Below are positions 1 through 50,387 of a stretch of DNA of 64,000 nt, in pieces. Below the pieces are notes generated by a model. The model did no database searches. It saw nothing but the letters and a program-made list of their open reading frames with translations, and was not told the origin of the DNA. Positions within the stretch are counted from its first letter, which is position 1, and each line of letters begins with the position of its first letter. Both the position numbers and the translations under genes were made by a program. The stretch is from Patescibacteria group bacterium (lineage in GTDB: Bacteria > Patescibacteriota > Patescibacteriia > 2-01-FULL-39-33): assembly GCA_041645075.1 (NCBI GenBank), contig JBAZQS010000002.1, positions 693-64,692 of the forward strand. The letters run 5' to 3'.

Positions 1-884
1 TAATTCCTTTGGCCATAGAAAATCATGATTTGATGGATTATGATATTGTGATTTCCAGCGCTTCCTCTTTTGCCAAGGGCGTGATTACCAAGCCCAGTAG
101 CCGGCACATTTGTTATTGCCACACGCCCACCCGTTATTTGTGGACCAGTACCCATTCCTATGTCCAGGAATTAAAAGTTAACCCGTTAATAAAAATATTT
201 TTGCCGTTAACTTTAAGGAAATTGCGGCTGTGGGACCGGTTGGCGGCTGACCGCGTTGATTTTTTTATTGCCAATTCCGAAACCGTCCGGGAAAGAATCA
301 GAAAATATTATAATCGCGACAGCCGAGTTATTTATCCGCCGGTGGCAGTTGAACAATATTATATTTCGCCCCATCCCAAAAAGTTTTATTTGGCGGGCGG
401 CCGTTTAGTGTCTTATAAAATGATTGATTTAGCGGTTAGGGCGTTCGCGCGCTTAGGCATACCCTTAAAAATTTTTGGCGTTGGCCCGGAAATGAAAATG
501 TTAAAGAAAATAGCGGCTCAAGGCGACCCATTAAAAAGCAATATTGAATTTTTGGGCCGGATTTCTGATAAGCAAAAAAGATGGCTTTTTGCCAATTGTC
601 TTGCTTATATTAATCCGCAAGAAGAGGATTTCGGCATTACGGCCGTGGAGGCCATGGCTTCCGGCCGTCCCGTAATTGCTTATCGGGCCGGTGGCGCCAC
701 GGAAACGGTTCGCGAGGGGGAAACGGGCGAATTTTTTGATGAGCAAGTCTGGGAAGAAATTGCCGACAAAGTGATTCGCTTTCAGCCGGAAAAATACCAG
801 CCGGAAAAAATTAAAGAACATGCTAACCAATTTAGCGTAGAGAGGTTTAAAAAAAGAATAATGGAGGTGGTGGATAATTTTTAG
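1..884 (+). CDS. Glycosyltransferase family 1 (GT4-like), C-terminal part; 5' end probably lies outside the window
   Basis: The ORF from 9 translates with the GT1 C-terminal motif EDFGITAVEAMASGRPVIAYRAGGATETVREGETGEFF. No convincing RBS or start inside the window. Confidence 0.7.
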   Translation, partial: IPLAIENHDLMDYDIVISSASSFAKGVITKPSSRHICYCHTPTRYLWTSTHSYVQELKVNPLIKIFLPLTLRKLRLWDRLAADRVDFFIANSETVRERIRKYYNRDSRVIYPPVAVEQYYISPHPKKFYLAGGRLVSYKMIDLAVRAFARLGIPLKIFGVGPEMKMLKKIAAQGDPLKSNIEFLGRISDKQKRWLFANCLAYINPQEEDFGITAVEAMASGRPVIAYRAGGATETVREGETGEFFDEQVWEEIADKVIRFQPEKYQPEKIKEHANQFSVERFKKRIMEVVDNF

Positions 885-966
885 TTGTCATTGCGAGGGA
901 GCGCGAGCGACCGTGGCAATCCTATAAGATTGCTTCGTCGGCGATTACGCCTCCTCGCAATGACAA
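885..966. repeat. Palindromic intergenic repeat (MITE-like), family A: TTGTCATTGCGAGG ... CCTCGCAATGACAA
   Basis: The 14-bp termini are perfect inverted repeats. An internal gattgcttcgtcggcg word is shared with a second copy at 50025-50134. Confidence 0.75.
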
Positions 967-970
967 TATT

Positions 971-2170
971 ATGAAAATCGGCATTGACATCCGTTGTCTG
1001 ATGAATAAAAATTATTCCGGCGTTTCTTATTACACTTTTAATTTATTAAAGGCGATTTTTGCGTTGGATAAAGAAAATCAATATTTGCTTTTTTATAATT
1101 CTTCCAAAAAAGTTGATTTGCCGGAATTTAATCAGCCAAACGTAAAATATGTCGGTTTTCACTGGCCGAATAAAATTTTCAATCTGGCCTTAAATTTTTT
1201 TAATGAGCCAAAAATTGACAAATTAATCGGCGGGGTGGATATTTTTTTTGCGCCCAACCTGCATTTTGTGGCTTGGTCGGAAAATTGTAAAAAAGTCATA
1301 GCGGTTCATGATTTGTCATTTTTGCGTTTTCCCGAGTTTTTTAATTTTAAAATGCGTTTATGGCATAAATTGATTTTGTGGAAAAATATTTTAGGCCAAG
1401 CCGATATGATTACGGCCGATTCAGAAAATACCAAGAATGATTTGATTGAATTGTTGAAAATACCGGAAGGTAAAATAAAAGTGGTTTATCTGGGTGTGAG
1501 CGAGGAGTTTAGGGTTTTGGCTAAAGACGATATTCGTTTAGAAAACGCGAGAAAAAAACATAATTTGCCGGAAAAGTTTATTTTATACTTGGGCACGCTG
1601 GAACCCAGAAAAAATATTGAGAGCATTGTTGAGGCATACAATTTATTTTCTCCCCCTTACGAAGGGGGGGATCAAAGAGGGGGTTATGATTTGGTGATTG
1701 CGGGCGGAGTTGGCTGGAAAGCAAAAAATATTTTTAAATTGGCAAAAAAAAATTCAAGAATAAAATTTATCGGCTACGTTGATGACCGCCCGGCTTTATA
1801 TAACTTAGCCAGCTTGTTTGTTTACCCGTCTTATTATGAGGGCTTTGGCTTGCCGTTACTAGAGGCCATGGCCTGTGGCTGTCCGGTTATCGCCGGCGCT
1901 AATTCTTCGCAGGGCGAGGTAGTGGGCGACGCGGGACTGCTGGTGGACCCGTATAATATTAATGAAATTAAAAAAGCCATGGAAATTTTATTGGCTAATA
2001 ATGAATTAAGAGATGATTTTATGAAAAGTGGATTGGAACGAGCAAAAGAATTCACCTGGCAAAAAACCGCGGAAAAAGTTTTGGAAAGTTTTATAAAATT
2101 TTTTCCCCCTTCCAAGGGGGTCGCCAGCGGGCGAGGGGACGGGCAAAAAAATTTATTTAAGTATTATTAA
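971..2170 (+). CDS. Glycosyltransferase family 1 (GT4)
   Basis: MKIGIDIR start typical of GT4; EGFGLPLLEAMACGCPVIA motif. Two short GC-rich palindromic in-frame segments at 1650-1688 and 2102-2143. Confidence 0.85.
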   Translation: MKIGIDIRCLMNKNYSGVSYYTFNLLKAIFALDKENQYLLFYNSSKKVDLPEFNQPNVKYVGFHWPNKIFNLALNFFNEPKIDKLIGGVDIFFAPNLHFVAWSENCKKVIAVHDLSFLRFPEFFNFKMRLWHKLILWKNILGQADMITADSENTKNDLIELLKIPEGKIKVVYLGVSEEFRVLAKDDIRLENARKKHNLPEKFILYLGTLEPRKNIESIVEAYNLFSPPYEGGDQRGGYDLVIAGGVGWKAKNIFKLAKKNSRIKFIGYVDDRPALYNLASLFVYPSYYEGFGLPLLEAMACGCPVIAGANSSQGEVVGDAGLLVDPYNINEIKKAMEILLANNELRDDFMKSGLERAKEFTWQKTAEKVLESFIKFFPPSKGVASGRGDGQKNLFKYY

Positions 2171-2997: not shown

Positions 2998-3651
2998 TTA
3001 TATCTCCTTATACTGAATTACCACGAATTGACCACATGGCTCATCTTCTGGAAAGAAACCAGGAATGATCCAAAGAGTTTTGGCTCCGTTTTTTATATAG
3101 AAGCCGAGAACTGGGTCTTTGGATAACATTAATTCATCCGGCAATGGCGCTTTCCCCTCTAAGTGAGCTGTTATCGCATCATGTATTTCTTGATTTTTTA
3201 AAACCCTTTCCTGCTGAAATTCTGAGCTTCCGTTAAAAGATGGACATCTGCTGTCTCCTACAATGTAGGACATTCCATCTTCTTTTGCTTTTTTGATAGC
3301 TCCCTCAATTAGATATTTTGCCGCGTAACCGTTTCTATGTTCTGGCACAATGCCTAAACTGTGAACAAAAGCAGTGTTTGGATTTTCATCATGTGGGACT
3401 TCAGCATACATTTTTAATGTTTTAGGAAAGTTTTCATAATCATTTGGTGAAAAATTGGCGTATCTTAGGGCTATTGTGCCAATCAATTTTTCACCAATAA
3501 AAGCGCCAAGAAATATGTGATTCATTTCCAAGCATATTCTGATGTTTTTTTCAGTAATTTGGATTGTTGGTATAAATGCTCTTTTTTCAACATCCATTAT
3601 TTGAGTAATATTTTCTATACTCAATTGGATTACAGAAATTAAACTTTTCAT
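2998..3651 (-). CDS. GNAT-family N-acetyltransferase (probable)
   Basis: HRNGYAAKYL resembles the acetyl-CoA-binding R-x-x-G-x-A motif. Start placed at MKSLIS (3651) after an AGGAGG-like RBS; the longer track ORF (to 3822) lacks an RBS. Confidence 0.5.
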   Translation of the reverse strand: MKSLISVIQLSIENITQIMDVEKRAFIPTIQITEKNIRICLEMNHIFLGAFIGEKLIGTIALRYANFSPNDYENFPKTLKMYAEVPHDENPNTAFVHSLGIVPEHRNGYAAKYLIEGAIKKAKEDGMSYIVGDSRCPSFNGSSEFQQERVLKNQEIHDAITAHLEGKAPLPDELMLSKDPVLGFYIKNGAKTLWIIPGFFPEDEPCGQFVVIQYKEI

Positions 3652-11912: not shown

Positions 11913-13112
11913 TTGAATATGTTCCAACTCTTGAAACAGTCAAAAAAATCATCAGCGCGGCTGGGCAAGATTAAAACTATCCACGGCGAAATACAGACGC
12001 CGTTTTTTATGCCTGACGCGACCCGGGGTTTTGTCAAGTCAATTGACAATAAAGAGTTGGCGGCGGTAGGCACAGAAGCGATGGTAATAAATACGCTTCA
12101 TTTATATTTACAGCCGGGCACCAAAGTCATCAAAAAAGCCGGCCTGTCTGCCGGAACTTCAGCGCAGGCAGGCGGCGTTCATAAATTTATGAATTGGCCC
12201 GGCTTATTGCTTTCCGACAGCGGCGGTTTTCAGGTTTATTCTTTAATCCACCAAAGCCAGGAGCTCGGTAAGATTTACGATGATAAGGTTATTTTTAAAT
12301 CCTCATTAGACGGTTCAAAACATATTTTAACGCCGGAAAAATCAATTCAAATTCAATTTGATTTGGGCGCGGATATGATGGTTTGCCTTGATGATTGTCC
12401 GCCCAATGATTTTCACAGAAAGGACTTAGAAAAATCAGTCGCCAGAACAATTGTCTGGGCCAAGCGCTGCCGCCGGGAATTTGACAAGCAAATTAAAAAA
12501 AGAAAATTAACCGGTTTATCAAAACCGTTATTATTTAGCGTGATTCAGGGCGGCGCCGAACTGGACTTGAGAAAAAAATGCGCTGAAGCGCTGATTAAAA
12601 TCGGATTTGACGGCTATGGTTTTGGCGCCAGGCCGGTAGATAAAAAAGGCGGATTTTTAGGCGGGGTCTTAAAATTTACCGCTGATTTAATTCCCAAAAA
12701 TGCTTTGCGATTTGCCCTTGGCATCGGCCGGCCCGAAGATATTTTAAGATGCGTTCAAATGGGCTGGGATATGTTTGATTGCGTGATTCCGACCAGAGAA
12801 GCGAGGCATGGACGATTATATGTCTGGAAAAATTCAAAGCTTGTCCCCGACTCCGATCGGGGATTCCAAACTTGTCCTCGCCGAGGCGGGTATTCCAAAT
12901 TTTATTGTACTATAAATATTTCCAATTCAAAATATAAGTCGGATTTTACGCCCATAAACGGCATGAATCTAAAAAATTATTCTAAAGCGTATTTACACCA
13001 CCTCTTTAAAGTTGGCGACCCGTTGGCTATGCGATTGGCCACTTTAAATAACTTAAATTTCTATTCAACATTAATGTCTAATATTAGGCGGGAAATTAAT
13101 GAAGTTTGCTAA
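11913..13112 (+). CDS. tgt: Queuine tRNA-ribosyltransferase (tRNA-guanine transglycosylase), atypical
   Basis: TIHGEIQTPFFMPDATRGF and LLSDSGGFQVYSL core motifs; the C-terminal YSKAYLHHL block is present but the CxCxxC zinc motif is absent. Confidence 0.8.
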   Translation: MNMFQLLKQSKKSSARLGKIKTIHGEIQTPFFMPDATRGFVKSIDNKELAAVGTEAMVINTLHLYLQPGTKVIKKAGLSAGTSAQAGGVHKFMNWPGLLLSDSGGFQVYSLIHQSQELGKIYDDKVIFKSSLDGSKHILTPEKSIQIQFDLGADMMVCLDDCPPNDFHRKDLEKSVARTIVWAKRCRREFDKQIKKRKLTGLSKPLLFSVIQGGAELDLRKKCAEALIKIGFDGYGFGARPVDKKGGFLGGVLKFTADLIPKNALRFALGIGRPEDILRCVQMGWDMFDCVIPTREARHGRLYVWKNSKLVPDSDRGFQTCPRRGGYSKFYCTINISNSKYKSDFTPINGMNLKNYSKAYLHHLFKVGDPLAMRLATLNNLNFYSTLMSNIRREINEVC

Positions 13113-15607: not shown

Positions 15608-16207
15608 TTACAATTCTTGCCGGCTTTTAAGGGCGTTTTCCAATGTTATTTCATCGGCATATTCCAGGTCGGCGCCCATGGGCAGGCCGCGCGCCAAGCG
15701 GGTGATTTTTAAATTTTTAAATTGTTTTAAAAGTTTAGTCAGATAAAGCGAGGTGGTTTCGCCCGGCAAATCAGGATTCAGCGCCAAGATTATTTCATTG
15801 ATACTATTATTTTTTATCCTTTCTACTAAGTCATTGATTTTTATGTTTTCCGGCTTAATGTCTTCTAAGGGATTTATATTGCCCCCTAAAATATGGTAGA
15901 CTCCGTCATAGCGGTTGATTTTTTCAATCGCGGTTAAGTCCTGCGGCTTGGCGACCACGCAAATTATTTTTTGGTTTCGCCGGTGGTCGGCGCAGATATG
16001 GCAAGGATTAGTTTCGGAGAAATTAAAACAAACGGAGCAGATTTTAATATTTTCTTTCAGGTGTTCAAGCGCTTCGCCAAACTGGTTTAATTCTGATTGC
16101 GGCCGATATAATAAATAAAAAACCAATCGCTCGGCGGTTTTTGGGCCGATGCTTGGCAATTTGGCAAATTGATTGATTAAATTTTGGATTATTTTAGGAT
16201 AACTCAT
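15608..16207 (-). CDS. recR: Recombination protein RecR
   Basis: C4 zinc finger CSVCFNFSETNPCHIC and a Toprim region. Confidence 0.9.
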   Translation of the reverse strand: MSYPKIIQNLINQFAKLPSIGPKTAERLVFYLLYRPQSELNQFGEALEHLKENIKICSVCFNFSETNPCHICADHRRNQKIICVVAKPQDLTAIEKINRYDGVYHILGGNINPLEDIKPENIKINDLVERIKNNSINEIILALNPDLPGETTSLYLTKLLKQFKNLKITRLARGLPMGADLEYADEITLENALKSRQEL

Positions 16208-16299
16208 TGATTTGATTTATAACCGCGATTATAAATTTTAATTTTTAGTTATTTACCGCTCCAATTGACCGCCCATTGACAATAATATTTTTACCTGAT

Positions 16300-16760
16300 A
16301 ATATATTAATAACATTTATTGAACTTTAGAATTTGGGAAACGCAAGCGAGTCCGCCACATTAAGTCCAGTTGGCTGGGAATTTGATGACGAGCGCACACC
16401 ACTAATCATCGGAAATTCCCAATGAACGCGATAAATAGTGGTAATCCGTTCTTGCCACTTAACCTGGCCGTGGCCTATTCACATTCTGCGCTTGCCCAAA
16501 AGGGCTCCGGTCAATCTCTCTTTGGGGAGTTCGTCGGGATTGACTGGAGCCCACCAAAATCCCGTCCGGGTTTCAGTGAGGACATGTTTTGCCGGCGACT
16601 CGGCCCTGGGTGCTCTTGGGCACTCGTGGGCAAATGAGAGGGGGTTTTTCTCCACCCCCCAACCTCAAAGCTGCTCGCTCAAAACCCCTGTCTTCCATCA
16701 TTCCCGGGGGGGCGCCCTGCCAACAGTACTTGAAAAATCAAGATGTTGGCAGGGCTTTTA
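16300..16760. ncRNA. Unidentified GC-rich, hairpin-dense structured region (candidate structured RNA; strand unknown)
   Basis: GC far above the flanks. Perfect long stems: gggctccggtcaatc...gattgactggagccc, gggaatttgatga...tcatcggaaattccc. The overlapping + ORFs look like nonsense. Confidence 0.35.
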
Positions 16761-16817
16761 ATTTTGTAGGCCGGGAAATTCAATCCGCAATTGAAAATTT
16801 ATATTTAAGTTTTAAAA

Positions 16818-18200
16818 TTATGGCGCCATCTCAATATTTTTTCCCAAATTTTTAAAGCTCACTAAATCCTCATTAAAATATAATTTAATCACCCCGGTCG
16901 GTCCATTTCTGTGTTTGGCAATATGGATTTCCGCGATATGTTTTTCCTCCTCTGATAAAGAATTTAAGTCATAACCGCGGTCGGCGGATTTTCTGTAAAT
17001 AAACATGACCACATCCGCGTCCTGTTCAATAGAGCCGGATTCTCTCAAATGGGACAACTTCGGAATGGCCGGATGGCTGGCTTCCACGGCGCGGTTAAGC
17101 TGGGATATGGCCAAAACCGGGACATTTAATTCTCTGGCCACGCCCTTGAGCGAGCGGGATATTTCCGTGATTTCTTGCACCCGATTATCGCCGTGACTGC
17201 TTGACCCCTCCATTAATTGCAGATAATCAATAATAATCAGGTCTAAGCCGTGTTCCATTTGCAGTCGTCTGGCTTTGGTCCTGATTTCCATAATATTGCT
17301 GTTGGCAAAATCGTCAATAAATATCTGGCTTTCCGACAATTCGCTCATGGCGTGGCCGATTTTAGGAAAATCATCACCGCCCTCGGAAAGTTTGCCGGTG
17401 CGCATTTTCCACAGGCCCACGCCCGCCTCGGCGCAAATTAAGCGGTCCACTAATTGCTCTTTTGACATTTCCAAAGAAAATATGCCCACGGCCATTTTAT
17501 TTTTCGTGGCCACGTGTCTGGCGATATCAAGCGCCAAAGAGGTTTTTCCCACCGACGGCCTGGATGCCAAGATTAGCAAATCAGATTTTTGCATGCCGGC
17601 CAAAAGGTTGTCTAAATCCGTAAAGCCCGTCGGTATGCCTCTTAATTTTCCTTTTTCCCGGTGCAATTCGTCAATGCGGTCAAAAGCGTCTGATAAAATA
17701 TCCTGGATGGGCGTAAATTTTTCTTTCAAATAATTTTGCGAAACGGAAAAAATGGTTTGTTCGGCTTTATCAAGAACTTCGCTCACCTCCCGCTCTTCAT
17801 GATAACTGGTTTCCAGTATTTTGTTGGCCGCCGAAATCAACCTCCTTAAGGTGGATTTTTTTTGAATAATTTTTGCGTAAGAAATGACATGGGCGGCGGA
17901 GGGGACTTGGTTGGTCAGGGAAACCAAATAGCTCCGGCCGCCGATTTTTTCCAATAAATTTTTTTCCTGAAGCCGGCTGGATAAGCTCAAAAGGTCAATT
18001 TCCTCTTTCCGCTCAAATAAGTCCAAAATTGTTTCAAAAATAATATTATGATTTTCTGAATAAAAATCGCCCGCCTTGAGCAGGTCGGCGATTTTAATAA
18101 TCGCGTCCTTATCAATCAATAAGGCGCCCAATAAAGATTGCTCGGCTTCAATGTTTTGCGGGGGTAATTTTTCCACTAAATTTCGGGTATTGTCCGGCAT
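16818..18200 (-). CDS. dnaB: Replicative DNA helicase DnaB
   Basis: N-terminal QNIEAEQSLLGALLIDKDAI; Walker A/B region. Confidence 0.9.
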   Translation of the reverse strand: MPDNTRNLVEKLPPQNIEAEQSLLGALLIDKDAIIKIADLLKAGDFYSENHNIIFETILDLFERKEEIDLLSLSSRLQEKNLLEKIGGRSYLVSLTNQVPSAAHVISYAKIIQKKSTLRRLISAANKILETSYHEEREVSEVLDKAEQTIFSVSQNYLKEKFTPIQDILSDAFDRIDELHREKGKLRGIPTGFTDLDNLLAGMQKSDLLILASRPSVGKTSLALDIARHVATKNKMAVGIFSLEMSKEQLVDRLICAEAGVGLWKMRTGKLSEGGDDFPKIGHAMSELSESQIFIDDFANSNIMEIRTKARRLQMEHGLDLIIIDYLQLMEGSSSHGDNRVQEITEISRSLKGVARELNVPVLAISQLNRAVEASHPAIPKLSHLRESGSIEQDADVVMFIYRKSADRGYDLNSLSEEEKHIAEIHIAKHRNGPTGVIKLYFNEDLVSFKNLGKNIEMAP

Positions 18201-18361: not shown

Positions 18362-18521
18362 GCGCCTATAGCTCAGTCTGGGTCGAGACCGCAGGTCGAG
18401 ACGGGTTGGAAGCGAGGTTAGGAGCGAAGCGACGACGCCGAGAGTCGGACAATCTGCTGGTAGCAGATTGGACGCCAACCCAGGAAGAGCAACAGTATTG
18501 TTTTAAAAATTAATTAAGTCA
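18362..18521 (+). other. tRNA-Lys 5'-fragment duplication interrupted by a 102-nt GC-rich hairpin insert
   Basis: 18362-18381 is identical to the first 20 nt of tRNA-Lys. 18485-18494 (agagcaacag) again matches the tRNA. 18382-18483 is GC-rich with stems such as caatctgct-ggta-agcagattg. Confidence 0.45.
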
Positions 18522-18522
18522 C

Positions 18523-18599
18523 GCGCCTATAGCTCAGTCTGGTAGAGCAACAGCCTTTTAAGCTGATGGTCGCAGGTTCAAATCCTGCTGGGCGCACCA
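18523..18599 (+). tRNA. tRNA-Lys (anticodon TTT), CCA encoded
   Basis: Cloverleaf by hand: acceptor GCGCCTA/TGGGCGC, anticodon loop CTTTTAA, T-loop TTCAAAT. Confidence 0.85.
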
Positions 18600-20547: not shown

Positions 20548-20754
20548 TTCAATCTCGCCAATAAGCCGTAGCTTACAGCCAAACAATGGTTACAACAGGC
20601 AGACATCTCTGCCTCAAGTAAATACCGCATGGGCAGCCCCATGTCTCGTTTGACCTAAGCTCCCTTAGAGCGAATGCTTTTAGGAGTTTTTTCCCACGGA
20701 CCAGATTACCTCATCTGTTCAATAAGAAAAAACTCCTTTTTTTATTTTGAGATT

Positions 20755-20802
20755 CCGCCGAATACCTCGTCCCGACGTAACGTCGGGGCGAGGATGAGGC
20801 GG
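20755..20802. repeat. Palindromic repeat family B (CCCGACGTAACGTCGGGG core)
   Basis: Nested inverted repeat. Related copies at 49913-49936 and 63054-63077. Confidence 0.6.
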
Positions 20803-21189
20803 AAGTTTATGATTTAATCTGTGAGCTTTTGCCGATTCGCCAACAGGCGAAAAAGGCAAAAGCGAACACTGATCAAAAGAGGATTCCAAAGGGGCGCCCC
20901 CTTTGGTCGGTGGGCGGGATCTAAATAACCCGCCCACCGAAACCTACTTTATTTTTAGTTTTAGTTAAAATATGAGATTGACAAAGGTTTATTTTAGTCC
21001 TACGATATTATCAGCGGCACCTTGACAATTAAATAAAATAAAGCATTAAATCAGTTAGATATAGCTAAAATTGGAGAAAGGAACGCGGTTTTGTTTGGGC
21101 GGTAAAAATCTCTAAATTAAAGTTTGATTTTTGGTTATCAACCAGATGACTCTTTAATGATACAAAGAACGAAAAAGGAGGAAAGGAAA

Positions 21190-23256
21190 ATGAAGGGTGT
21201 TAAGGGATTCGCGTTTAAAGCTCTGGGAGCTTTAGTTTTGGTTTTTGTCTTGTGCGGTTATTCCTGTAAAGGCAAGGTTAAGCCGGAGTCGCTGTTGACA
21301 CCAAGTTCGGTCGGTCCGGTGGCCATACCCCAAGAGGAAATGCCCAATATGGATAATCCGACCCAATGCCTAACCAATGAGAATGGCATTCGTCAGAAGG
21401 CGATTATTACTCGCCGCGGCGTTTCTTGCAGCCAAGAGCCGGGCGGCGTGGAAGATGGTTTTGATTTGGATTATTTCCATTCTTATTTCGTCTTTGAAAC
21501 CGTAGAGGTAAACGGCATCATTTATTATCGGGTTGGCATTACCCCCCGGCGGGCAAATATTAAGGGCTGGGTGTCCGGCGCCAAAGTCCAATTATGGGAT
21601 ACAGCGATCGGCGCCCGGTACGCGCGTCCGGAAAGTGACGATCCGGAAAAGAAAGTCAGCCAGATTCTGCCCCCGCTTTACGTGTATGGGGAAAAGGAAG
21701 ATTCAATCAAGGCAATTAAAAGCGAGTCGGTTGAACCGATTGCCCAGACCCTCTATGACTACAAGTACAAAACCCAAATGGCTTGGCCCATAACTAAGAA
21801 AGAAGAATTTCCTTTCCAGGGCAAGACCTATGAGGTTTTTCAGATCGCTTTCTTGAGTGAATACCCGCAGGGCGGCGATATTAACGCGCCCCCGCCGGTA
21901 ATTACGCCCACGGTTGTGAGAACGGAAAAGCAGAAACAAGTGAAAGAAGGCGTTAAGACGATTGATGTCGTTTTTGTGATTGACACCACGCTTTCCACGA
22001 CGCCGTATATTGAAGCCGTCAAAGAGACGATCCGGAAAATTATGAACAGCTTGAATGGTATTAGCGCCGGTTCATTTAAACCGGACATCGCTTTCGGGCT
22101 GGTTGAATACCGCGATTTCGTCGACGGGCTTTACTTTAATGATAATGGCGCACAGAAGGTTTATCGGCTGTTCCAATTAACTAAGGATGCCCAGGCGTTT
22201 CTTAACCGCATTAATATTGTTAAGTCCGCTGGCAAATCCAGTGAGGGCTGGCAGGAAGCGGTTCTTGATGGTTTAAAAGCGGGTTTGATGGAAATCAGTT
22301 GGAGCAATGATTATTCGGAAAGGATATTGATTCTGATCGGAGATAATTCCGGCCACTCATCGGATTCGCCGGAAATTAAGACGGGCAGTAAAAGTCCGAA
22401 TAATATTTCGGTTGGCGATATTACCGTTTTAGCCAGTCGTAACCGGGCCACTATTTTTTCTTTGTTGGTTAAAAACCAAGCCGAGGCGGCCGAAGTGGCT
22501 CGTCACCTTAATCAGTTTACCGAGTTTGCGGAAAAAACCGGCGGTAAATGTTTTCCTTTGGAAGTGGTCGGCGAGATGGTTGGTTTGGTTTCTAACCGTA
22601 TTATTGACCCTAAAATCCAGGAAGCGGAAATCGGTACGGAAGTGGTGACGGCTAAACTTCGTGGCAGCTCGGAATCAGCCATTAAGGAAAAAGTCGGCGA
22701 GAAGCAATATGTGGAAGTGATGAAATGGCTTAGCAAGCGCAACATCACTGACCGCGATTTAAAACCGGGGGAAATTTTCTTTTCTACCGGTTGGGTGGTT
22801 TCTGAAGCGGGCGGCGTTAAGATTCTGGCCAAAGAGGCCTATATGGCCCGTTCGGAATTGAATCTGCTTTTGACCAATCTTCAGTCACTCAAAGATTTCT
22901 TAGCCAATCCTAAGGCCTCGGTTTCACTGATTGCCGCTGCATATTTTCCTCGTGTTCGAGAGAATATGCCGAATGTTGTTCGAGAGAATATGCCGAATTT
23001 CCTCGGCGAGGAGATTTCCTTGCCCATGAATGTTTGGCTGCAAATTAAGGGCATTCCCTTGTCCGAATACAGCATCTTGAAATTCAATAAGTCAATATTG
23101 GAACAGATGCCGGAGGAGACCAGGCGGACGATCAAACAACGGATCACGACTCAATGCCTGCCGGCGTTGATGAATGATTATAATGATTTTATCCGCTTTT
23201 CCAATCAGGATGATATAAACAGCTTTGGCTGGGTGAGGGAAAAATACCTGCCCTAA
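21190..23256 (+). CDS. Secreted/lipoprotein-like VWA domain protein
   Basis: Signal peptide MKGVKGFAFKALGALVLVFVLCGYSC. DVVFVIDTTLST (MIDAS-like) and ILILIGDNSGHS segments typical of vWA. RBS AAAGGAGG. Confidence 0.65.
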   Translation: MKGVKGFAFKALGALVLVFVLCGYSCKGKVKPESLLTPSSVGPVAIPQEEMPNMDNPTQCLTNENGIRQKAIITRRGVSCSQEPGGVEDGFDLDYFHSYFVFETVEVNGIIYYRVGITPRRANIKGWVSGAKVQLWDTAIGARYARPESDDPEKKVSQILPPLYVYGEKEDSIKAIKSESVEPIAQTLYDYKYKTQMAWPITKKEEFPFQGKTYEVFQIAFLSEYPQGGDINAPPPVITPTVVRTEKQKQVKEGVKTIDVVFVIDTTLSTTPYIEAVKETIRKIMNSLNGISAGSFKPDIAFGLVEYRDFVDGLYFNDNGAQKVYRLFQLTKDAQAFLNRINIVKSAGKSSEGWQEAVLDGLKAGLMEISWSNDYSERILILIGDNSGHSSDSPEIKTGSKSPNNISVGDITVLASRNRATIFSLLVKNQAEAAEVARHLNQFTEFAEKTGGKCFPLEVVGEMVGLVSNRIIDPKIQEAEIGTEVVTAKLRGSSESAIKEKVGEKQYVEVMKWLSKRNITDRDLKPGEIFFSTGWVVSEAGGVKILAKEAYMARSELNLLLTNLQSLKDFLANPKASVSLIAAAYFPRVRENMPNVVRENMPNFLGEEISLPMNVWLQIKGIPLSEYSILKFNKSILEQMPEETRRTIKQRITTQCLPALMNDYNDFIRFSNQDDINSFGWVREKYLP
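22954..23001 (+). repeat. 24-nt in-frame tandem duplication inside the VWA gene (VRENMPNV/VRENMPNF)
   Basis: gttcgagagaatatgccgaatgtt occurs twice. Confidence 0.8.
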
Positions 23257-49117: not shown

Positions 49118-49237
49118 CTTGTAGGAATTAGCTTGTAGCTGGTAGTTTTATAAATAAAAAAATATAAATAGCCGATTTTTGGCTATTTTATTTTGGCCAA
49201 ATTTAGAGTAAATAATCATTAAAACTTTTTGGTGGTC

Positions 49238-49266
49238 TTGACAATTTTAGCCACATGTGCTATAAT
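49238..49266 (+). promoter_or_regulatory. Perfect consensus sigma70-type promoter (TTGACA-17-TATAAT)
   Basis: ttgaca attttagccacatgtgc tataat. Confidence 0.65.
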
Positions 49267-49400
49267 GGACATATTAAGAATAAATCAGGACATTACAATA
49301 TTTGAAGTTCCTCACTAGGGCGGTAGTCCAGTATTCTGGGTTTATCGCCGTAGTGAGGACATTTAAAGCAAAATCCAAAGTATCTTGAAAGGAGATTCTA

Positions 49401-49547
49401 ATGAGAATGAAAATCCGAAAGCCAATGGGAACCGTTGTCCTGCTGGTGGCTCTCGCCATCTTCAACTTCTGTGCGGCAAGTTGGATGGGAGTCGCGAGCG
49501 GACTGCTCCTGCTGTCGCTCGTGCTCTACATCTACAGGACTCATTGA
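49401..49547 (+). CDS. 48-aa hydrophobic small membrane peptide (type-I-toxin-like)
   Basis: GAAAGGAG RBS 6 nt before the ATG. MRMKIRKPMGTVVLLVALAIFNFCAASWMGVASGLLLLSLVLYIYRTH. GC-rich codons. Confidence 0.5.
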   Translation: MRMKIRKPMGTVVLLVALAIFNFCAASWMGVASGLLLLSLVLYIYRTH

Positions 49548-50024
49548 GTAGGGGAGCGTCTGAGGTGAAAAACACCAAAAGACGCTCTCCCACAAAACCA
49601 TTTTGCGAATTTAGATTGGCAAAATAGTTTTGGAGAGGACATTACAATATTTGGAGCCATAATTTAGAGGAGGGGGAGAGTATTAGCGCCAATCTATCTA
49701 AAAGGATTCTTATTGGGTTTACTCAATATCAATCCTTTATAAAATAGCGGCGCCTGCCGCTCTCGGTAAATTTCAGGTCACAAACAATTTATTGTAAGGA
49801 CCGGAAGAAATTTAACCATCCTCTATATTATCGCTCTAAATGTTGTATGTTTTTTCCCTTCTTGATGATGGCCATTAACCTGCCTCGGCCACTTACTTCC
49901 ACCCTCCTAAATCCCCGCCCCGACGTCACGTCTGGGCACTTCCCACCGTCTCGCGAGAGCGAGACACAAAAGCGAGTAGAGAATTTTATAAAGAAATTTG
50001 AAGCTCGCTTTTTTCTTTGGTATT

Positions 50025-50134
50025 GTCATTGCGAGAAGGCGTACTCGCCGACGAAGCAATCTAAATTTAAAAACAAGATTGCTTCGTTGGATTACCTCCT
50101 CGCAATGACAATTCGACGGGGCGCAATGACAAAA
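50025..50134. repeat. Palindromic repeat family A, second copy
   Basis: TTGTCATTGCGAG...CTCGCAATGACAA plus a third GCAATGACAA arm; shares the gattgcttcg core with 885-966. Confidence 0.75.
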
Positions 50135-50387
50135 AAAATATTTTTCAACAGCCAAGCCCTTGACAAGCGATTATTTATTGTTTTTGGTTTTATTTGGTGC
50201 TATAATCTTGGGAAGGGAAGGACTTCACATTGGAATATTATAATTGCGCTTTCCTAAATGCTATTTAGGATAATTGCTTTAGCGCAATTTCTCAATATTC
50301 TAATTCGTCCCTCTCCAGATCCCGCCCACTGGGCGGGATCTTTTATTTATGATATAATAAAACATATAAAACATTAAAAAGTAAAAT

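Follow-up and report, generated by a model that had tools for sequence, protein, structure and literature searches.

A candidate structured RNA gene of unknown class between recR and dnaB in a Patescibacteria genome, with a family of mini-ORF RNAs at the same locus in its relatives

In a Patescibacteria genome, the genes recR and dnaB are separated by a gene-free gap of 610 nucleotides (nt), most of which is occupied by a G+C-rich block at positions 16311–16762 of the 64-kb stretch of DNA analyzed here (hereafter, the window). The block is most likely a gene in its own right, strongly transcribed and encoding a compact, highly base-paired non-coding RNA (ncRNA) of ~450 nt that belongs to no described family, and we place the probability that it is a real, expressed and functional structured RNA gene, read from the plus strand, at roughly 0.55. 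On this reading, which is plausible but unproven, the unit is probably a lineage-specific orphan of unknown class. Both flanking genes lie on the minus strand: recR (15608–16207), whose naming is supported by the RecR homologues recovered in protein searches, and dnaB (16818–18200), with Pfam RecR and DnaB domains recognized on the strain-level twin contig L001. The best RecR homologues carry source names that point to a Buchananbacteria-like lineage of the Patescibacteria (candidate phyla radiation), close to 'Candidatus Buchananbacteria', as the likely origin of the DNA.

The block is bounded by a near-consensus promoter and by a hairpin followed by a U-tract, and it thus looks like an independent gene, antisense to both recR and dnaB (Table 1). 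The promoter scan places the predicted transcription start near 16311 on the plus strand. At the distal end, a fully complementary inverted repeat forms the predicted intrinsic terminator; our terminator scanner skipped this hairpin on account of its loop of >8 nt, and it was identified from the inverted repeat together with the fold. In the minus-strand direction this hairpin runs into CGCCCCCCC, which precludes termination, and only the plus-strand side carries a U-tract. A weaker promoter-like site, which matches the consensus alone and points toward recR, overlaps the promoter of the RNA; the two should consequently compete for polymerase, and from their arrangement they would be divergent and mutually exclusive. 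A palindrome (16215–16236), possibly a candidate operator, is located in the stretch that leads from the start codon of recR to the promoter of the RNA.

Base composition sets the same limits. The block has a G+C content of 52.0%, rising to 61% in two of its predicted structural modules (hairpin II and domain III, below), against 40.8% for the whole window, and the untranscribed ends of the gap fall to 25.2% (16208–16310, 103 nt) and 27.3% (16763–16817, 55 nt). The preliminary description, made from the sequence alone, had stressed a sharp contrast in G+C content with the flanks, and this contrast of 52% to 25–27% in the remaining gap is confirmed. A block of 52% G+C within a genome of 41% G+C argues that either its structure has been selected for or it was recently acquired. 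The genomes of candidate-phyla bacteria are tiny and contain hardly any spare DNA, which makes it unlikely that a G+C-rich unit of 450 nt with a top-grade promoter lies idle.

The plus strand of the block folds with a minimum free energy of −181.6 kcal/mol, compared with −144.5 ± 5.7 kcal/mol for 100 dinucleotide shuffles (z = −6.5). When 213 segments of 450 nt were scanned across the 64 kb, the block scored a z of −5.1 against a median of −1.1, ranking ninth and hence within the top 4–5%. The partition function yields nine helices with a pair probability of at least 0.9 and resolves the fold into three modules: a multi-branch domain I, a long hairpin II, and a domain III built on nested long-range helices with pair probabilities of 0.92–0.98. 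Domain I taken alone is only weakly better than its shuffles (z = −1.9). The density of stems noted earlier is therefore well founded, with z scores of −5 to −6.5 against shuffles; the two stems of 13–15 bp that had been called perfect do exist, but neither is perfect, since GGGCTCCGGTCAATC/GATTGACTGGAGCCC (16502–16516/16538–16552) combines 14 Watson-Crick pairs with one G-U pair on the plus strand and lengthens to the 17 bp of hairpin II, and GGGAATTTGATGA/TCATCGGAAATTCCC needs a 2-nt bulge. On the minus strand, the G-U pair of hairpin II becomes a C-A mismatch. We also observed that hairpin II runs directly into ACCA (the end of a CCACCA at 16551–16556), such that its end, GGAGCCC-ACCA, resembles the acceptor end of a tRNA or a minihelix substrate of RNase P; this junction could be a candidate processing site splitting domain I from domain III.

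To place the block among known RNAs, we searched Rfam 15 (4227 models, including RNaseP_bact_a/b, 6S, transfer-messenger RNA (tmRNA), signal recognition particle (SRP) RNA, group I/II introns, OLE, GOLLD, ROOL and raiA). At gathering scores, the whole window returned four tRNAs and nothing in the block; at E ≤ 10 with lax filters, the 751 nt at 16150–16900 gave three meaningless snoRNA-type matches, all outside the body of the block. The earlier suggestions of an RNase P or 6S RNA, and with them the tmRNA, SRP RNA and group I/II introns that the preliminary description had listed for checking, thus failed at the level of covariance models, and the signature words told the same story. For RNase P, the P4 strands CR-I (GAGGAAAGUCC..) and CR-V (ACAGAA..CGGCUUA) are missing from both strands even when 3 mismatches are allowed; the RNase P-like word gagcgcacacc pointed out in the preliminary description is indeed present (16391–16401), and GGAAATTCC in the block lies one mismatch from the 9-nt core, without a partner, but with neither a covariance-model match nor P4 strands or CR-I/CR-V the identity itself falls. 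For tmRNA, ARAGORN and Rfam both returned nothing, the T-loop word (T-arm GGUUCGAnUCC) is absent within 2 mismatches, and the CCACCA is internal to the transcript, unlike the 3' CCA of a tmRNA. There is no Rfam match to 6S RNA, a single rod of ~180–200 nt with a central bubble, as opposed to the multi-domain fold of 450 nt predicted here. No Rfam match to SRP RNA was found, nor a domain IV word (GGAAGCAGCC or GUCCGGAAGG) within 2 mismatches; group I/II introns and known ribozymes and riboswitches likewise lack an Rfam match, and the domain V word of group II introns is absent. OLE, GOLLD, ROOL, raiA and HEARO gave no covariance-model match in the block at E ≤ 10.

Coding potential is equally poor. 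The block contains open reading frames (ORFs) of 71, 88 and 107 amino acids (aa), none of which has a start preceded by a Shine-Dalgarno (SD) sequence or a Pfam match. The longest runs through the terminator hairpin and has no homologue among collections of 5.8 billion and 1.84 billion proteins, and gene callers placed nothing in the gap of the twin contig L001. The earlier statement that no plausible protein is encoded accordingly stands. Two kinds of gene remnant were considered and dropped: a decayed ybaB, a gene that sits between dnaB and recR in some relatives, left no remnant in the gap, and a foreign gene fragment found no protein or Pfam match. As far as testable, a decayed gene is ruled out.

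Homologous loci were fetched through RecR homologues, and the recR–dnaB spacer was compared across relatives with a RecR identity of 65–80%, together with the twin L001, whose RecR is 97% identical and whose gap is identical to that of the window. In seven loci (L008, L009, L010, L037, L065, L071 and L072) dnaB directly abuts recR, and this adjacency is the common and probably ancestral state in most Patescibacteria. In a second group, with RecR 67–77% identical (L002, L003/4, L005/6, L091, L092 and L093), the spacer from recR to ybaB or dnaB holds one or two units, each with an extended −10 promoter beside recR, transcription away from recR, a length of 350–920 nt, a G+C content of 45–53% and a strong terminator. 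The promoter type TGnTAnnnT is common to the units of L002, L003, L005, L091, L092 and L093. Position and orientation are those of the window unit, and it is the kind of element, and not its sequence, that is conserved at this locus. The same six loci, along with L007, carry a palindrome different from that of the window, ATCTAAATTTAGAT, within a shared motif, TTTTAGCTAAATTTAGAT, just upstream of the RNA promoter and the recR start, and its place in the divergent recR/RNA control region is operator-like. As an aside, the differences between the window and L001 fall largely in two patches, with 34 in 12348–12760 (tgt, 3' half) and 13 in 15734–15909 (recR, 3' part), while most of the other genes are identical, a pattern typical of recombination tracts rather than of clock-like divergence.

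On comparative grounds, the spacer units of the relatives are an undescribed, fast-evolving family of structured RNAs, none of which matches Rfam at E ≤ 1. Their most distinctive feature is a set of mini-ORFs of 7–20 codons with a strong SD sequence and an AUG start, of which the six relatives hold 12 on the RNA strand (antisense to recR) and none on the opposite strand. The encoded peptides, each followed by a stop codon, include MEYPSGFP, MEYASGFP, MEEYPSGFE, MEYPSGFV and MNFSSGFT, and further MRHISRGRGAFR/MRRCRGRGTFR, MRIVSFERMLGNDPFL and MKKNVRRKYGGQAVLGVVFT. Phenylalanine stands two residues before the stop in 10 of the 12, compared with 0 of 20 among the SD-led mini-ORFs in the rest of the window, and the Ser and Gly codons vary only at third positions, which points to selection on the peptide. 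The AUG lies inside a hairpin that is kept through sequence changes (CAGAUGGA/UCCGUCUG, CAGAUG/CAUCUG, AGAUGA/UCAUCU). A 12-bp long-range helix, GGGGUG.../...CACCCC (UUUUGGGGUG...CACCCC), is 100% paired in each of three lineages, five of its pairs being compensatory, whereas slid controls are 42–66% paired and only 5 of 500 shuffles do as well; with n = 3 lineages, this covariation is suggestive.

A metagenome scan with the mini-ORF pattern added one new member, L093, and one possible case in a phage context, L110; the other matches were out of frame or eukaryotic and are attributable to chance, as were all matches of a viral scan. The L110 case (~866–1010, plus strand; also L096), on a rumen contig with phage-like genes, consists of tandem SD-led frames MLTSGFM-stop and MLTSGFV-stop followed by a terminator. 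Between the tandem copies, the codons for Thr, Ser and Gly show synonymous changes; judging from this case, an SGF-x-stop mini-ORF may occur outside Patescibacteria.

How the window RNA relates to this family is less clear-cut. It shares with the relatives' units the locus, the orientation, the extended −10 promoter type, an intrinsic terminator, a G+C-rich body and nested long-range helices, and like them it sits between recR and ybaB/dnaB, with predicted transcription leading away from recR, from the extended −10 promoter as far as the terminator. It also contains a start-less frame ending in IPSGFQ-stop (16559–16579), with no SD sequence and no ATG, GTG or TTG after the preceding stop. The pattern [PAST]SGFx-stop arises in 293 of 300000 shuffles of the window RNA (~1e-3), a match that was found after the motif had already been defined in two relatives; the string may be a relic of the relatives' mini-ORF, and the figure is suggestive. 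The window lacks the upstream TTTTAGCTAAATTTAGAT motif and a recognizable UUUUGGGGUG...CACCCC helix, and an nhmmer profile built from four relatives (L005, L091, L092 and L093) found nothing in the gap at E ≤ 100. Short words that by eye seemed to be shared with relatives (TTTGATGACGA, GGAAACGCAA, CTTCCATCAT, CACATTAAG and GCGCACA) were rejected as homology, since the alignments are at chance level. Since the window unit shows just one of the three features by which the family is defined, we do not count it among the members.

Several of our results weigh against a functional RNA gene in the window. The stretches at 20.1–21.2 kb and 49.2–50.3 kb fold better than the block in the 450-nt scan, so that a strong z score alone is not diagnostic in this genome. 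The minus strand reaches −184.0 kcal/mol (z = −6.6) against −181.6 kcal/mol for the plus strand, with 13 G-U pairs in each, leaving folding energy and G-U counts indecisive as to strand. Neither nhmmer nor local alignment to the unit of every relative recovered a homologue of the block beyond the twin L001, the alignments staying at z ≤ 2.9 against shuffles, which is chance level, and the contigs fetched through RecR, like the matches listed from genome and metagenome scans, contained no intermediate relative; in consequence, no helix of the window RNA has covariation to draw on. The twin itself differs from the window by 57 substitutions in 7.86 kb, clustered outside the gap, and many genes are identical as well, so that zero differences in the gap are uninformative on selection. 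Finally, the window has no SD-led mini-ORF, as against 12 in the relatives. The preliminary description had named, as grounds for giving up its RNA reading, either the joint absence of an Rfam match and of conservation or covariation in homologous spacers, or evidence of a decayed gene: for the sequence, the former is formally what we found, and of the latter the searches for protein, Pfam and ybaB remnants gave no sign. Its broadest proposal, a large ncRNA of unknown class, survives as a plausible reading in that the kind of element is conserved at the locus.

Among the competing explanations, the block might be a decaying relic, that is, a non-functional, degenerating copy of the relatives' mini-ORF RNA that has lost its SD sequence and AUG. 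The start-less IPSGFQ-stop remnant and the lack of a strong-SD mini-ORF fit such decay, as do the failure to find a sequence homologue beyond strain level and the empty locus in several close relatives, which marks the element as dispensable. Yet the near-consensus promoter and the terminator are intact, the G+C content is still 52% beside spacer of 25–27% in an AT-biased genome, and the helices are very stable, whereas a neutral relic would be expected to drift AT-ward and lose its stems; we regard decay as rather unlikely. The sharp step in G+C content, together with the turnover of spacer content among related genomes, some of whose sites are empty, could alternatively indicate recently acquired foreign or selfish DNA, be it a piece of some genome with a higher G+C content or a small mobile element of the non-autonomous kind, inserted into a dnaB/recR hotspot. 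Imperfect inverted repeats of 30 nt (I1, 70%) at both ends of the gap would suit a mobile element, but they are AT-rich and at chance level, there is no second copy within the 64-kb window, and comparison with L008, L009 and L010 shows no target-site duplication or recognizable empty-site halves. A miniature inverted-repeat transposable element was accordingly rejected as the origin, the check for inverted repeats and target-site duplication being negative. With no blastn match in phage and plasmid collections, no protein homologue of the long ORF and a promoter of the host's own type, foreign origin seems improbable.

An element acting from the opposite strand, as a spacer structure in a dnaB-recR mRNA (intercistronic or within a long recR leader) with a role in processing, stability or attenuation, draws on the equal folding of the minus strand and on the co-directional, abutting dnaB and recR of most Patescibacteria, which suggest an ancestral operon. 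Against this stand the best promoter and the sole U-tract terminator, both on the plus strand, the G-U pair of hairpin II that turns into a C-A mismatch, and the six occupied relatives, whose SD-led ORFs, promoters and terminators run antisense to recR (12 mini-ORFs to 0); this too we hold to be improbable. A length of ~450 nt, a strong promoter and a multi-domain fold, with the GAGCGCACACC word and CCACCA after a long helix, are what one might expect of a universal RNA (RNase P, 6S, tmRNA or SRP) so divergent in candidate phyla that the Rfam models miss it. Universal RNAs keep conserved cores across phyla, however, and here the signature words are absent, Rfam at E ≤ 10 and ARAGORN are silent, and conservation of the sequence fails even between genomes whose RecR is 72–80% identical, making such an identity extremely improbable. 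Scarcely more credible is a small protein encoded in the block: the open frames that invite this explanation, up to 107 aa long, have no SD-led start, Pfam match or (for the 107-aa frame) homologue, the longest continues through the terminator hairpin, and no gene was called in the gap of L001.

If the block is indeed an RNA gene, the unit would be transcribed on the plus strand from promoter to terminator, and its folded structure would be the functional product, presumably a stable regulatory or protein-binding RNA. In evolutionary terms, it could be a fast-diverged, translation-less descendant of the relatives' family or a replacement for it. With its strong promoter overlapping the putative recR promoter and its transcription converging on dnaB, the unit may, as a side effect of placement, uncouple recR from what was ancestrally the dnaB transcript. 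In the relatives, the conserved Phe-x-stop mini-ORFs suggest, by analogy with arrest and leader peptides, that the ribosome acts as a sensor, with no gene downstream. A search for targets in trans by crude duplex folding against gene starts was uninformative and demonstrated no target complementarity, and any particular mode of action is doubtful. Equally speculative is a more specific proposal, in which the window RNA and the relatives' units together form a new class of fast-evolving, highly expressed RNAs with ancestral ribosome-engaging mini-ORFs ending in ..S-G-F-x-stop; such RNAs would register how translation or termination is proceeding and relay this to the replication and repair genes dnaB and recR, by refolding or by convergent and overlapping transcription, the window copy having become independent of translation.

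Comparison with described systems helps to delimit the candidate. RNAIII of Staphylococcus aureus (~514 nt, with the reading frame for delta-haemolysin) and SR1 of Bacillus subtilis are dual-function regulatory RNAs; in common with both, the unit would be a stand-alone gene of several hundred nt with its own promoter, terminator and many hairpins. The further likeness of a short ORF embedded in a structured RNA is limited to the relatives, and there is no sequence relation, the window copy lacking a translatable ORF. OLE, GOLLD, ROOL, raiA and HEARO are similarly large, multi-domain, GC-rich relative to their genomes and of unknown biochemical function, but all are in Rfam, where none matches, and the deep covariation across many genomes by which such classes are recognized is absent here. 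TnaC, SecM, the Erm/Cat leaders and the eukaryotic MAGDIS upstream ORF are regulatory or arrest peptides, which the relatives' short, peptide-conserved ORFs recall, as does the AUG sequestered in a hairpin; the relatives' units differ in having no downstream protein gene, and the window copy in having no start codon. To bacterial RNase P RNA, the candidate is likened by a size of ~400 nt, a multi-domain fold and an GAGCGCAC-like word, and it is set apart by the missing covariance-model match, P4 strands and CR-I/CR-V and by the lack of conservation between related genomes.

We know of almost nothing on the regulatory RNAs of candidate-phyla bacteria, and our literature searches on ncRNAs of Patescibacteria and on the mini-ORF peptide motif found nothing relevant. 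Should the reading as an RNA gene be correct, the block would represent an RNA class absent from current databases, and the dnaB/recR spacer a hotspot with quick turnover of RNAs. The relatives' Phe-x-stop ORFs within covarying RNAs would provide a testable and apparently new candidate for a device sensing nascent peptides or termination. Should it be wrong, the block would serve as a warning that promoter, terminator, G+C content and fold z score can all mislead for a strain-specific orphan.

Table 1. Predicted features of the recR–dnaB gap in the window, and RNA units in the spacers of relatives (coordinates of the respective locus)
Feature	Position	Strand	Basis or remarks
Palindrome ATTTATAACCG/CGATTATAAAT (ATTTATAACCGCGATTATAAAT)	16215–16236		Inverted repeat I7, 91% complementary
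Sigma-70-type promoter TTGACA-17-TAATAT, TG extended −10	16276–16304	+	Promoter scan, 10/12 matches
Weaker promoter-like site TTAATA-16-TATTAT, toward recR	16282–16309	−	Promoter scan, 9/12 matches
Predicted primary transcript, ~450 nt, 52% G+C	16311–16762	+	Promoter and terminator limits; fold z −6.5; G+C drop outside
Domain I, multi-branch, closed by UUUGGGAAACGCA/UGCGCUUGCCCAAA and GCGAGUCCGCCAC/GUGGCCUAUUCAC	16332–16500	+	Minimum free energy fold; pair probabilities 0.82, 0.93, 0.78, 0.64
Hairpin Ia, with GAGCGCACACC loop	16369–16427	+	Part of domain I
Hairpin Ib	16437–16459	+	Part of domain I
Hairpin II, 17-bp stem, then directly ACCA	16502–16556 (stem 16502–16552)	+	Pair probability 0.98; z −5.8
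Start-less frame CTG GAG CCC ACC AAA ATC CCG TCC GGG TTT CAG TGA (LEPTKIPSGFQ-stop)	16544–16579 (IPSGFQ-stop 16559–16579)	+	
Domain III, nested long-range helices CCCGUCCGGG/CCCGGGGGGG, GAGGACA/UGUCUUC, GUUUUGCCGGCGA/UCGCUCAAAAC	16561–16712	+	Pair probabilities 0.97, 0.98, 0.92, 0.95, 0.82; z −3.5
Hairpin IIIa	16603–16631	+	Enclosed by domain III helices
Hairpin IIIb, G5/C5 stem, UUUUCUCC loop	16635–16667	+	Enclosed by domain III helices
Intrinsic terminator, 12+5 bp hairpin (17 bp), −28.8 kcal/mol, then UUUUAAUUUU	16714–16765	+	Inverted repeat I5, 100% complementary; pair probability 0.99
L091 unit	2164–2691	−	
L092 unit	2120–2835	−	
L093 unit	193–799	−	
L005 unit	294–918	−	
L002 unit	53–971	−	
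L003 unit	3283–3629	−	

Other structured stretches were observed in the window. The strongest fold lies in a gene-free region of 1.27 kb at 49118–50387 (z = −13 for 49501–49950), which has a consensus extended −10 promoter (49238–49266), an SD-led ORF of 48 aa (49402–49548) that is hydrophobic and type I toxin-like, a direct repeat of GGACATTACAATATTTGRAG (~49289 and ~49637) and, at ~50026–50110, the long palindrome GTCATTGCGAG...CTCGCAATGAC; a second small promoter-to-terminator unit follows at ~50160–50345. A further 640 nt without genes, at 20548–21190, comes after a 313-aa ORF that lacks a Pfam match; this stretch folds with a z of −12.6 and contains several long, near-perfect hairpins (e.g. 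CCGCCGAATACCTCGTCCCGACGTAACGTCGGGGCGAGGATGAGGCGG and CGGTGGGCGGGATCTAAATAACCCGCCCACCG). Rfam has no match in either region. Lastly, at 18362–18490, a copy of the first 20 nt of tRNA-Lys (GCGCCTATAGCTCAGTCTGG) is followed by a G+C-rich insert of ~108 nt and then by GAAGAGCAACAG, corresponding to tRNA positions 21–32. This copy, which is preceded by a TATAAT-like box and lies ~30 nt upstream of the intact tRNA-Lys (18523–18599), may be the scar of an integration event, a tRNA copy that has been disrupted, or a leader resembling a tRNA.

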